DNA of 64,000 nucleotides from Candidatus Spyradenecus sp. (GCA_045535075.1 JAZSKX010000014.1:174373-238372), one strand, 5' to 3'; shown: positions 1 through 64,000, counted from the stretch's first letter. A program made the numbers and translations. Notes: generated from the sequence alone by a model not told the origin.

Positions 1-152
1 TGAAATGCGGCGTGGGGCGCATTCGCAAAAACACGGCGTTCGACAACGGACTTGCGCTCTGGGTTTGCGGCGACCAGCTCTGGAAGGGCGCAGCGCTCAA
101 CGCGATTCAAATCGCCGAAGAAATGGATCGCCAAGGCTTGCTGAAAAAGTAA
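1..152 (+). CDS. asd: aspartate-semialdehyde dehydrogenase, C-terminal fragment (5' end outside window)
   Basis: Frame 3 reads ...[35 protein letters not shown] with the stop at 150-152. The D-x-L-x-KGAALNA-x-QIAE block matches the conserved Asd C-terminus as I recall it. Track ORF 5..199, in another frame, looks spurious. Confidence 0.6.
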
Positions 153-367
153 GCGGACGTGTAACGATTAAAATAATTAAACCGGTTTCAGGGCTTTGAG
201 ACCGGTAATTCTTGGGTTTCCGGACGCGGCGTATCTCGTGCGTGCTTACCGCCGTTTCGCGATTTGCCGTTTCCGGAAAATATTGCCCGTTTTTACATCT
301 CAATCGCTTTTTTGTTTCGTGAATTTTTAAAATCATTAGGATGGAATGAAAATTCCACTTTCTCGAC

Positions 368-2572
368 GTGTTGACCGCTAAACAGCTTGCCCTTGCCGTT
401 GTGCTTCCTGCCCTTATCCTTGCGGGAACGCCTTTCGCTTTTTCCGAAAATATTGAGACCGAACTCGGGGATTCGACGCTTCCTGCCGACGGGCTTCCCG
501 TAACATACACGCGGCTTTCTATCGGGAACGACGGCGTTATTCGCTACGAGGACGCGGAAATCGCGCTCGGTGATATTCACGTGCGTGCGGACGAAGTCGT
601 CTACGATTCGGAAGGAAAAAGCTTTCGCGCAAGCGGCAACGTCCAGCTGAATCTTGAGACGATGCGCGTGCTGACGGATCTTGTCGGTTTGAATCAGGCG
701 ACGGGAGAGATGGAAGCTCAAAATGTTATCGGAGGGGCGGAAATGCTTTTCTTCGATGCGAAGCGGGTTGCCGGCGTTTCTGCTGAGTCGAAGACAATGG
801 AGATTTCCGGCGCGAATGTTTATTTCGCGGAACCGCACTGGAGCTCGGTTTCTTTCAGCACGAATCTCATTTCCTACGATAAGGAGGAAGATTGGCTTCG
901 CCTGGATTCGTCCGTATTTCGTATCGCGGGCGTTCCCGTGCTTCCGTTGCCGCCGCTTTCCACGCCGCGTTTCGAGCGCCCGCCTGTTCGCGTCTGGGCG
1001 AGTTCGGGAAGCAAGTCTTCGACAGGGGTTTATTTCAGCACGACGACGCATCTGACTGTTTTTGATGAGTATGAACCCGGCATTTTGCTGGATTTTTACG
1101 AGCGATCCGGTCCGCTTGTCGGCCCTGCATTAGCGTACGACACGCGTGACGAGGCGAGTACGCGTTGGATGTTCGGCGATTTTCAGTCCGGCTATATCAA
1201 TGATACGGGAACGCGAAACGAAGATATTTACGGGAACGAAATCGGCGGACGCCGAGGCTTCATTAATTGGTTTCATAAACAGCAATTAGATAAGCTTGAA
1301 ATTACGGCTTCGATCCATCGCTGGAGCGATTCGGAAGTCATGGATGATTTCCGTTCGCAAATTTACAACGAAAACCAAAATCCGGATAATTTTGTCGAAC
1401 TCGTCATTCCCGATCGCGCCTACTACATTTCCGCGATTACGCGAATGCACTTGAACGACTATCAAAGCGTTCAGCAGCGGCTTCCGGAAATTCGCTTTGA
1501 TATGATGCCGGACGAAATCGGCAAAACCGGAATTTTTCAGCGTTTCAGCGCTTCGTATGCTTCTCTTGTCGAAGAAAGTTCCGATCAGTATCATCTGACG
1601 CAAACGAATTATCATGGCGATGAATTGAAGAGTTCCCGCGCGGATTTTTATTACGGGTGGGATGCTCCGATTAAGTTCGGTGAAGTTGCAACGCTTACGC
1701 CGGTCGCCGGCGTACGGACGACTTTTTACGGGAGCACGGTACCCGATCGCGATGACACTTATTGGCGCACGCTCGGACAAATCGGCTTTGACTTGCAGTT
1801 TCTGGTGACGGGAACGTCCGGCTACCAAAATAAAACTTGGGGAATTGACGGCTTACGCCACGTCTTGCGCCCGGTTCTCCAATATCGCTACATGCCCGGC
1901 GTCGATTCGCAGAGTTCCCGCATTCCGCAAATCGATCGCGACATTTACCGCGACGCTCCGTCGATTCTCGACCTCGGAGAAAATCGCGCTGTGGATCAGA
2001 TTTACGACGAACATATTTTCCGCTTCGGGCTCGAAAATCTTTTCCAGACACGCGACGAAAAATACGGCTCAAGAGATCTCGCCGAGCTGAATATTTATCA
2101 GGATATCCGGAAGACCGAACGCCCGGTTGACAATCGAAATTGGAGCGACAATTTTGTCGTCCTCAATATTACGCCCGCAAATTGGATTTCTTTCGCCTTT
2201 GCGCATCGGATGGATGTTTACGATTTTAAAACAAAATCGTTTAAATCAAGCGTAACTTTCACCGACGGAGACGTGTGGTCGGCGACGCTCGGCGCGCGCT
2301 TTGTCGCCAACGACGATTTGGCGTATTACGGCTGCGATACGCGAGCCCGGCAATACACGATTCGCGCCGATTATCGTCTGAATTCGTATTTCCAAATTTA
2401 CGGCGATTGGCGTTACGACGACGAAAAAAATTATTTCACGGACCAATATTACGGCTTGCGCCAGCGGCTCGGCAATTCATGGGCAATCGAGTATTACGTT
2501 CGCCATGAACGCGATACGAGCGACGGGTGTGAAGTCTCCGTCGGAATTTCCGCAAGTTTGCTTGCGTATTAA
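368..2572 (+). CDS. LptD/OstA-like outer-membrane LPS-assembly protein
   Basis: 734 aa with a GTG start and a signal-like N-terminus (LALAVVLPALILAGTPFAFS). It has an OstA-like N-terminal region (VRADEVVYDSEGKSFRASGNVQL) and a long aromatic-rich beta-barrel-like C-terminus. The assignment rests on architecture, not on a search. Confidence 0.5.
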   Translation: MLTAKQLALAVVLPALILAGTPFAFSENIETELGDSTLPADGLPVTYTRLSIGNDGVIRYEDAEIALGDIHVRADEVVYDSEGKSFRASGNVQLNLETMRVLTDLVGLNQATGEMEAQNVIGGAEMLFFDAKRVAGVSAESKTMEISGANVYFAEPHWSSVSFSTNLISYDKEEDWLRLDSSVFRIAGVPVLPLPPLSTPRFERPPVRVWASSGSKSSTGVYFSTTTHLTVFDEYEPGILLDFYERSGPLVGPALAYDTRDEASTRWMFGDFQSGYINDTGTRNEDIYGNEIGGRRGFINWFHKQQLDKLEITASIHRWSDSEVMDDFRSQIYNENQNPDNFVELVIPDRAYYISAITRMHLNDYQSVQQRLPEIRFDMMPDEIGKTGIFQRFSASYASLVEESSDQYHLTQTNYHGDELKSSRADFYYGWDAPIKFGEVATLTPVAGVRTTFYGSTVPDRDDTYWRTLGQIGFDLQFLVTGTSGYQNKTWGIDGLRHVLRPVLQYRYMPGVDSQSSRIPQIDRDIYRDAPSILDLGENRAVDQIYDEHIFRFGLENLFQTRDEKYGSRDLAELNIYQDIRKTERPVDNRNWSDNFVVLNITPANWISFAFAHRMDVYDFKTKSFKSSVTFTDGDVWSATLGARFVANDDLAYYGCDTRARQYTIRADYRLNSYFQIYGDWRYDDEKNYFTDQYYGLRQRLGNSWAIEYYVRHERDTSDGCEVSVGISASLLAY

Positions 2573-2581
2573 ACGATCGGA

Positions 2582-62846: not shown

Positions 62847-62856
62847 CGTCGTGTGT

Positions 62857-62975
62857 GCTTCGCGAGAGATTTTAGTTTTTCGCGAAGCACGCTGAGCTCG
62901 CCGAGTTTTTTGAAAGCGGGAACTGTTTTGTCTTTTTCTAAAAAGAACTTTGCGAATCCTTGAGTTTTCGGCGAT
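62857..62975. repeat. dispersed copy of the 104-bp repeat family, containing a perfect 11-bp hairpin
   Basis: GTGCTTCGCGA-gagattttagttttt-TCGCGAAGCAC followed by GCTGAGCTCGCCGAGTTTTTTGAAAGCGGGAAC...AAAAAGAACTTTGCG. Confidence 0.7.
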
Positions 62976-62993
62976 AAAGGTAGTTTTTTTAGG

Positions 62994-64000
62994 ATGGCAA
63001 ACGAAAAAATCATTTACACGATGTCGCGGCTCTCGAAGGGATTCGAGAAAAAGCCGATTCTCAAGGACATTTCGCTCTCGTATTTTTACGGCGCAAAAAT
63101 CGGCGTACTCGGGCTGAACGGCTCGGGTAAATCCACGCTTTTGCGCATCATGGCGGGCGTCGATAAGCAATACGAAGGCGATATTTCCTGCGTTCCCGGC
63201 TACACGATCGGCTACCTTGAGCAGGAACCGCAGCTCGATCCCGCGAAAACCGTGCGCGAATGCGTCGAAGAGGGCGTTGCGGAAACGCGCAAACTCCTCG
63301 AAGATTACGATGAAACTTTCATTCAGCTCGGCGAAACCGACGATCCCGCCGAGCAGGAAAAAATTCTCAATCGCCAAGGCGAAATCCAGGAAAAACTCGA
63401 CGCCTCCGGCGCGTGGGATCTCGATTCCCGCATCGAAATGGCGATGGACGCGCTCCGCTGTCCGGACGAAAATGCGCTCGCCGCGAACCTTTCCGGAGGG
63501 GAAAAACGCCGCGTCGCGCTCTGTCGCCTGCTCCTGAAAGAGCCGGATATTCTGCTTCTCGACGAGCCGACCAACCACCTCGACGCGGAAACCATCGACT
63601 GGCTCGAACGCCACCTGCACCAATACAAAGGCACGGTGATCGCCATCACGCACGATCGTTATTTTCTCGACAATGTCGCCGGCTGGATTCTCGAAATCGA
63701 CCGCGGCTACGGCATCCCGTGGAAGGGCAATTATTCTTCTTGGCTTGAGCAAAAGGAGAAACGCCTCGCCGCCGAGGAAAAAGTTGCTTCCGCGCGCCGG
63801 AAAACCATGGAGCGGGAACGCCAGTGGGCGGCGACTTCGCCGAGCGGGCGTCTCGCGAAAAACAAAGCGCGCCTCCGTGCCTACGAAGCCATGCTTGCGC
63901 AGGACGAACGCGAGCAGGAAAAGACGATGGAAATTTTCATTCCCGCCGGACCGCGCCTCGGCGAAAAGGTGCTCGTTGCGAAGAATCTCACGAAAGGTTT
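62994..64000 (+). CDS. ettA: ABC-F translational throttle ATPase EttA, N-terminal 335 codons (3' end outside window)
   Basis: My manual translation is MANEKIIYTMSRLSKGFEKKPILKDISLSYFYGAKIGVLGLNGSGKSTLLRIMAG...LSGGEKRRVALCRLLLKEPDILLLDEPTNHLDAETIDWLE...ITHDRYFLDNVAGWILEIDRGYGIPWKGNYSSWLEQK. This is collinear with E. coli EttA. It is absent from the track because no stop codon falls in the window. Confidence 0.9.
   Translation, partial: MANEKIIYTMSRLSKGFEKKPILKDISLSYFYGAKIGVLGLNGSGKSTLLRIMAGVDKQYEGDISCVPGYTIGYLEQEPQLDPAKTVRECVEEGVAETRKLLEDYDETFIQLGETDDPAEQEKILNRQGEIQEKLDASGAWDLDSRIEMAMDALRCPDENALAANLSGGEKRRVALCRLLLKEPDILLLDEPTNHLDAETIDWLERHLHQYKGTVIAITHDRYFLDNVAGWILEIDRGYGIPWKGNYSSWLEQKEKRLAAEEKVASARRKTMERERQWAATSPSGRLAKNKARLRAYEAMLAQDEREQEKTMEIFIPAGPRLGEKVLVAKNLTKG

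Follow-up and report, generated by a model that had tools for sequence, protein, structure and literature searches.

What maintains a single octamer at a frequency of about one copy per 200-400 bases in a bacterial lineage? This question is raised by a stretch of DNA of 64,000 nucleotides from Candidatus Spyradenecus sp. (GCA_045535075.1 JAZSKX010000014.1:174373-238372; hereafter, the window) and by DNA of its relatives, in which the word CGGGAACG and its reverse complement CGTTCCCG reach this density. An earlier note on the window had proposed that the word is an uptake or self-recognition signal or else the binding site of an abundant DNA-binding protein. The analysis described here indicates that the word is over-represented far beyond background, is confined to one clade of gut bacteria and is preserved in that clade by an ongoing force. 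We hold, with about even confidence, that it is a clade-specific self-recognition word resembling the DNA uptake sequences (DUS) and uptake signal sequences (USS) of other bacteria, maintained by biased DNA uptake and recombination.

Over-representation of the word

The window contains 168 exact copies of the word, 101 on the plus strand and 67 on the minus strand, and the word ranks first by frequency among all 8-mers of the window. In 100 dinucleotide-preserving shuffles of the window, the mean number of copies was 5.41 and the maximum was 11, so that the observed number is 30 times the expectation. The enrichment survives Markov backgrounds of orders 1, 2 and 3, for which the expected numbers, summed over both strands, are 5.6, 8.0 and 18.7, respectively. 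Models of orders 5 and 6 come close to the actual number only because the 6-mers and 7-mers they use consist of the motif copies themselves; these models were therefore dropped as a test of the enrichment and do not refute it.

Within coding sequence, a synonymous-codon shuffle, in which codons are permuted within each gene such that every protein sequence and the codon usage of each gene are kept, yielded 16.9 +/- 3.9 copies (maximum 29) compared to the 146 observed, that is, an approximately 9-fold excess. The control is conservative, given that motif-shaped peptides are present in the proteins that it preserves. The signal is also sharp: the 168 copies of the exact word compare with 195 for all 24 one-mismatch variants summed, an average of 8 per variant, the commonest being CGGGAGCG with 30 copies. 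Thus, the over-representation is confirmed. The eight copies that the earlier note had listed in the first 3 kb were all recovered at their positions in the exact count, the enrichment is stronger than first stated, and the claim that it is not an artefact of codon or peptide usage holds under the protein-preserving shuffle.

Restriction to a clade of gut Opitutales

Judging from Ffh, the nearest relatives of the source organism are uncultured gut Opitutales/Opitutia represented by metagenome-assembled genomes (MAGs) labelled Candidatus Spyradenecus and Candidatus Spyradosoma (Verrucomicrobiota), and DNA nearly identical to the window is present in gut metagenomes, those of sheep and goats included. 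For 80 species, copies of the word were tallied in the DNA surrounding the ffh gene (up to 21 kb); the clade DNA sampled besides the window amounts to about 270 kb of such loci rather than whole genomes. In the 12 species with 81-87% Ffh identity (L005-L016), the word is the top 8-mer and its density is 2.2-5.0 copies per kb, at a GC (guanine plus cytosine) content of 44-64%. The species with Ffh identity of 72% or less (L017-L080; GC mostly 57-69%, some 47-53%) have 0-0.16 copies per kb, and two additional loci chosen at the boundary, with 78% and 75% Ffh identity (L211 and L212; GC 57-58%), have 0.17 and 0.07 copies per kb, respectively. The clade boundary for the word hence falls between 81% and 78% Ffh identity. 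All motif-rich species share one consensus, with no variant forms seen across the clade. Sequence records of motif-rich members include SUVQ01, JAGBIL01, JBJEVQ01, JAILGB01 and NZ_JBNPNH01 (Ca. Spyradosoma sp. SGI.093, which may be in culture, given its RefSeq record), and the motif-poor loci L001 and L002 come from JAFYWY01 and JAZRTJ01.

A scan of metagenome contigs for the terminator pattern formed by the word (see below) returned 120 stretches, nearly all of them chance matches; the clearest dispersed, clade-like cases are L109 and L116. Another short metagenome contig (L163) carries nine partly overlapping copies of the word within about 230 bp (1216-1447), for example, CGTTCCCGCGTTCCCGGGAACGTTTTT. 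A soil contig of 70% GC (L083), with 9 copies, is not a case of the same phenomenon: it contains a local tandem-like repeat of AGCGGGAACG. Several MAG records with a clearly Opitutales-like Ffh are titled Enterobacteriaceae, Bacteroidaceae, Sphaerochaetaceae, Klebsiella, Polynucleobacter or Akkermansia muciniphila, and NCBI places Candidatus Spyradenecus under Lentisphaerota; both the mismatched titles and this placement are probably labelling errors.

Constraint on the sites

In motif-rich relatives with about 77% nucleotide identity to the window, 63% of the window sites are exactly conserved compared to 15% for other 8-mers. The ffh gene, which carries four copies (Table 1), can be followed in a codon alignment: the site CGG GAA CGC (RER) is kept in 16 of the 16 ingroup species, GAC GTT CCC GCx (DVPA) in 14 of 16, and TCG GGA ACG (SGT) in 10 of 16, and the outgroups have different synonymous codons or different residues (RDA, AKN) at the motif sites. 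Other sites in the alignment were gained in particular lineages, in some cases at an amino-acid cost (AKT or AAA replaced by AGT).

The same tendency is seen at short range, in a comparison with the conspecific strain L206, which is 2.5% divergent from the window over 21.3 kb. Only 1 of the 512 motif positions is substituted versus 516 of the 20,825 other positions (Fisher p = 1e-4), that is, substitutions are 12-fold rarer at motif positions. The sole window site that is changed in L206, at 41348, lies inside a divergent tract of the alignment (Table 1), which also contains two sites present in L206 and lacking in the window (41375 and 42433); no outgroup sequence that could polarize the differences aligned at the five differing sites. 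Single-nucleotide polymorphisms number 28-53 per 500 bp in this tract versus about 7 elsewhere (index of dispersion 12.7), and the tract is likely to be an import from a diverged relative by homologous recombination. Taken together, these comparisons of sequences indicate that an ongoing force is preserving the CGGGAACG sites now.

Loss of the word in the sister lineage

The nearest sister lineage of the window (L001-L003 and L209), in which Ffh is 95-97% identical and nucleotide identity is 84%, has only 0.4-1.5 copies of the word per kb, L003 being intermediate at 1.5. The sites are conserved in this lineage no better than the background (24% versus 26%); all the retained sites are common to the window, no sites were gained, and the lost sites often bear a different substitution in each species. 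This pattern indicates that the word is decaying neutrally in the sister lineage, so that the system can be dispensed with and has ceased to operate there; such dispensability argues against an essential structural role of the word. The coexistence of motif-rich species with a motif-losing sister lineage offers a direct comparison for finding the responsible gene, such as that for a receptor.

Frames, spacing and orientation

Across 944 pooled sites from 13 species, the extended consensus is weak, Y(-2) G(-1) CGGGAACG C(+1), with zero information beyond positions -3 and +1, and therefore the word is not part of a longer repeat. The gaps between copies in the window have a median of 257 bp and a coefficient of variation of 1.07; thus, the spacing is random. 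The density is 2.48 copies per kb inside the window genes and 4.28 per kb outside them, with 146 of the 168 copies (87%) located within genes, singly, in housekeeping genes. All six reading frames of the window genes are used. The favoured frame, xCG-GGA-ACG, encodes (A/T/S/P)-G-T (51 sites), and the second, antisense frame encodes x-V-P-x (35 sites). The motif-bearing genes are ordinary housekeeping ones, including scpA, dinB, fumA, ffh, dnaK, guaA, prs and lptF/G; the word is also found in sulfatase and M60-like genes, which are typical of a mucin or glycan degrader, and in the gene for the transfer-messenger RNA (tmRNA; Table 1).

The orientation of the word in the related loci L005-L016 is balanced (398 copies on the plus and 379 on the minus strand), with 46-53% on the plus strand in most of the 12 and with deviations, such as that in L013, that follow base composition. 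The window itself is at 60:40 (101:67, p = 0.01) versus about 51:49 predicted from its base composition, and inside its minus-strand genes there is no strong polarity (26:22). The previously noted occurrence of the word in both orientations, in all frames and in intergenic DNA is thus borne out, and the comparison with strand-biased chromosomal signals, namely, Chi and the FtsK-orienting polar sequences (KOPS), shows no replication polarity in the related loci.

Probable terminator hairpins

Four perfect hairpins in the window, all at gene 3' ends, consist of inverted pairs of the word in the arrangement A-run, (G/A)CGTTCCCGTG, loop, (C/T)GCGGGAACG(C), T-run (Table 1), in agreement with the four terminators that had been recognized earlier. 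Judging from their structure and position, these hairpins probably act as intrinsic terminators, and the symmetric A and T runs of the two hairpins between convergent genes imply that these could terminate transcription in both directions. The open reading frame upstream of the hairpin at 7906..7941 was identified as Ldh_1_N/Ldh_1_C, and the hairpin after fumA is the strongest terminator-like site in a scan of 1-20 kb (18 pairs). A further hairpin is formed by a one-mismatch variant of the word. In 278 kb of DNA from 13 species, 37 close inverted pairs are in the terminator orientation versus 10 in the opposite one, and many of these are accompanied by T-runs. The hairpins are multi-copy and break assemblies, as seen in the assembled contigs of a run labelled transcriptomic (X14). 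In the motif-poor sister species, the place of the dnaK terminator is taken by an ordinary hairpin of unrelated sequence.

Between the two conspecific strains, the dnaK terminator has its loop in exactly reverse-complemented form (TGATTAATTTCG at 40039-40050 of the window versus CGAAATTAATCA at about 15601-15612 of L206), with the motif arms unchanged; the difference is an inversion between inverted repeats.

Depletion in atypical and foreign-looking DNA

A low-GC island in the window contains far fewer copies of the word than expected (Table 1), and base composition alone accounts for merely a twofold drop. The island encodes two PapB-like radical-SAM/SPASM maturases, an 811-aa POMP-repeat protein and a PEP-CTERM/LamG protein (47663-53560), a cluster that looks like an acquired island of the surface-protein type or of the type encoding ribosomally synthesized and post-translationally modified peptides (RiPPs). 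Both radical-SAM genes are free of the word, as is the 40%-GC PD-(D/E)XK 'GxxExxY' gene, as the earlier note had observed; its description of the whole island as motif-free has to be amended given the two copies at 50483 and 53006. The test of depletion in acquired DNA rests on this one island. None of the viral contigs with the terminator pattern, the hosts of which are not established, exceeds 0.9 copies per kb. Six related viral contigs from IMG/VR (L216, L221, L231, L238, L240 and L246), with 0.4-0.6 copies per kb, share a motif-pair hairpin and the same spacing of the neighbouring copies, and may be word-poor phages of the motif clade.

Just upstream of the GxxExxY gene (PD-(D/E)XK_3; 61796-62245), there is a tandem array (61291-61748) that comprises 4.4 copies of a 104-bp unit with 92% matches, and a partial copy of the end of the 104-bp repeat (CGCGAAGCACGCTTAGCC) is located on the far side of the gene, at about 62265-62285.

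Table 1. Locations of the features discussed in the text (window coordinates unless a locus is named)
Feature	Position	Strand	Description
Terminator (predicted)	7906..7941	+	Directly after malate/lactate dehydrogenase gene (mdh) 6962-7888; predicted fold -23.2 kcal/mol, 17-bp stem
Terminator (predicted)	18520..18560	+	Directly after fumA 16851-18500; predicted fold -33.0 kcal/mol
Bidirectional terminator (predicted), A6 ... T6	33171..33208	.	Between convergent M16 peptidase (30606-33152, +) and guaA (33230-34255, -)
Bidirectional terminator (predicted), A9 ... T7	40021..40066	.	Between convergent dnaK (38012-39937, +) and Fe-alcohol dehydrogenase (40066-41253, -)
Hairpin from one-mismatch variant, CGCTCCCG ... 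CGGGAGCG	56685..56710	.	Between convergent DUF2339 and prs genes
Four motif copies in ffh	34863, 34909, 35033, 35613 (34863..35620)	+	Three positionally conserved across the clade (codon alignment)
Motif copy in tmRNA gene	27138-27145		tmRNA gene 26909-27288
Divergent tract, ~2.5 kb	40937..43437	.	~9% divergence from L206, background ~1.5%; spans adh/sulfatase genes
Motif-depleted low-GC island (43-49% GC), 6.4 kb	47614..54060	.	2 copies versus 18.6 expected, Poisson p = 1.6e-6
comM (yifB) homologue	L015 5160-6701		In a motif-rich Ca. Spyradosoma MAG, ~3.3 kb upstream of ffh; identity to the E. coli protein 43%

Possible nature of the force that maintains the word

The traits published for DUS and USS include frame bias, location and pairing in terminators, clade-level variants, a signal common to the whole clade and scarcity in acquired DNA (bioRxiv 10.1101/2025.10.24.684340; PMC13020248; PMC7371117). 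The word described here displays the corresponding sequence hallmarks, namely, over-representation, both orientations, frame bias with preferred peptides, terminator pairs, clade restriction, depletion in the island, constraint on the sites and decay in a sub-lineage. Given that all the tested sequence-level properties match the published ones, a reading of the DUS/USS type is favoured. The uptake or self-recognition part of the earlier proposal is thereby upheld at the level of sequence, to which this support is limited, and the alternative of a DNA-binding protein stays beside it. We infer that the force acting on the sites is biased uptake combined with recombination. Under this scenario, cells of the gut Opitutales would take up or process word-bearing DNA preferentially, via a sequence-specific receptor, and homologous recombination of such DNA would then fix alleles with the word. 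The word would build up wherever it is tolerated, that is, in certain frames, in intergenic regions and in terminator stems, and would remain rare in recently acquired DNA.

Several observations weigh against this scenario. The evidence presented above shows that there is a word-preserving force, and none of it names that force. At 2.6-5 copies per kb, the word is several times denser than DUS or USS, which occur about once per kb, and its core is shorter, at 8 bp. The mild plus-strand excess in the window (101:67) is explained only in part by base composition. To our knowledge, no naturally transformable member of the Verrucomicrobiota has been described, and a literature search found none. 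Among the competence genes, comEC, comEA, dprA, pilQ and pilins were not found in the window or in the approximately 270 kb of clade DNA, which is a limit of the sampling and not evidence of absence; a tblastn search of all fetched DNA with nine E. coli seeds (ycaI, smf, hofQ, hofM, yhgH, yifB, hofC, hofB and ppdD) matched only comM, in L015 (Table 1), and a search of the sampled DNA for the prepilin motif detected no signature. In the library searched, nothing relevant was found on the word, nor for Verrucomicrobiota or Opitutales on competence or uptake sequences, and recent papers (2025-2026) discuss sequence-specific DNA uptake for Neisseriaceae and Pasteurellaceae only (bioRxiv 10.1101/2025.10.24.684340; PMC13020248). 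The phenomenon is robust, appears to be previously undescribed and lends itself to experiment.

The word could instead be the site of another sequence-specific DNA system that is under direct selection and acts without biased uptake, be it an abundant nucleoid or segregation protein, a repair or strand-discrimination nuclease, or a self-marker for a defence or degradation system. The sharp specificity of the word implies recognition by a protein, the sites are under constraint, comM is the only competence gene with a homologue in the sampled clade DNA, and a self-marker would likewise be expected to be depleted in foreign DNA. We consider this explanation unlikely. What speaks against it is that the spacing is random rather than regular and that the system is dispensable, the sister lineage losing its sites at a neutral rate and having an ordinary hairpin in place of the motif terminator of dnaK; furthermore, we know of no described nucleoid or repair site with 30-fold enrichment, at 3-5 copies per kb in coding sequence and at an amino-acid cost. 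A mutational or repair bias, in which repair of the very-short-patch type or biased gene conversion, tied to a non-palindromic methyltransferase, turns near-matches into the word, would work in all frames and both orientations and would be both clade-specific and losable; an analogous bias has been proposed for the highly iterated palindrome HIP1 of cyanobacteria. The one-mismatch variants are indeed somewhat enriched as well (195 in total, with 30 of CGGGAGCG). However, known repair biases yield approximately two-fold rather than thirty-fold enrichment, no particular neighbour of the deamination type is depleted, the word is not a palindrome, and the depletion in the island would require time-dependent amelioration, which such a bias allows without specifically predicting it. 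On balance, we regard this mechanism as improbable.

The remaining candidates fare worse. A polar signal of chromosome architecture or recombination, of the type of Chi, KOPS or the architecture-imparting sequences (AIMS), would also be an over-represented octamer of core DNA, and the 60:40 excess in the window is on the G-rich strand. However, the orientation is balanced in most of the 12 related loci (46-53% on the plus strand), with deviations that track base composition (L013), and inside the minus-strand genes of the window (26:22), and Chi and KOPS are about ten times rarer than this word; with co-orientation with replication not observed (398:379), this reading is highly improbable and is rejected. 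Still less credible is an artefact of a repeated mobile element, such as a repetitive extragenic palindrome (REP) or a miniature inverted-repeat transposable element (MITE), or of codon or peptide usage. The hairpins superficially resemble REPs, and the frames encoding (A/T)GT and xVPx are favoured, but nothing is conserved beyond about 11 bp, 87% of the copies are single and located within housekeeping genes (146 of the 168 being in genes), and the codon shuffle yields 17 copies versus 146. Both forms of this explanation are thereby refuted, including the dispersal of one repeated mobile element, which the earlier note had identified as a finding that would overturn its proposal. An iterated palindrome of the HIP type is rejected as well, given that CGGGAACG differs from its reverse complement CGTTCCCG.

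Implications

With slightly less confidence than we attach to self-recognition as such, that is, a little short of even, we suggest that the word represents a third, independently evolved DNA-uptake-sequence system, the first outside Pseudomonadota, in a clade of gut Opitutales of ruminants, birds and humans with few or no cultured members. If so, natural transformation with self-recognition would exist in bacteria of the Planctomycetes-Verrucomicrobia-Chlamydiae (PVC) group and, specifically, in a gut lineage of Verrucomicrobiota, where it would create a barrier that channels gene flow inside the clade. The sister lineage, with its recent loss, would then point to the receptor gene. Furthermore, the origin of such signals is debated, and a third, unrelated and denser case would test the generality of the molecular-drive model. 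We are not aware of any genetic tools for the gut lineage of Verrucomicrobiota that carries CGGGAACG; the word can serve as a guide for the design of transforming DNA, as well as a simple tag by which genomes of the clade can be binned and foreign DNA in them recognized.

Comparison with known systems

The closest parallel is with the DUS of Neisseriaceae (GCCGTCTGAA and its variant forms), which is likewise a short, non-palindromic word that is hugely over-represented in both orientations, occurs both within genes, with a frame bias, and in intergenic regions, forms inverted pairs that serve as bidirectional terminators, is common to a whole family-level clade and is scarce in acquired islands. 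The differences are that DUS are found in Pseudomonadota, whereas the present word, unrelated to theirs, belongs to Verrucomicrobiota; that the DUS core is 10-12 bp long, compared to 8 bp here at a density approximately 3-5 times higher; and that DUS come in several variant forms as opposed to the single form found across this clade. The USS of Pasteurellaceae (AAGTGCGGT) shows the same genomic behaviour, including the preferred frames and peptides and the terminator pairs, and its copies, too, arose by synonymous as well as amino-acid-changing substitutions; it differs from the present word in lineage and sequence and in having AT-rich flanking segments, of which there are none here. DUS are linked to competence and a ComP-like receptor, the counterparts of which in the Opitutales clade are hypothetical, as is biased uptake of the USS kind.

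HIP1 of cyanobacteria (GCGATCGC) is also an octamer that reaches one copy per few hundred bases, is present in all frames, has sites conserved beyond expectation and is of unproven function, but it is a palindrome linked to cognate methyltransferases, in contrast to the asymmetric word described here, and the pairing of CGGGAACG in terminators is a trait of DUS and USS, not of HIP1. Finally, Chi and KOPS/AIMS share with this word the status of over-represented octamers of core DNA, but these show strong co-orientation with replication and are about one-tenth as frequent, whereas CGGGAACG is dense and neutral with respect to orientation.

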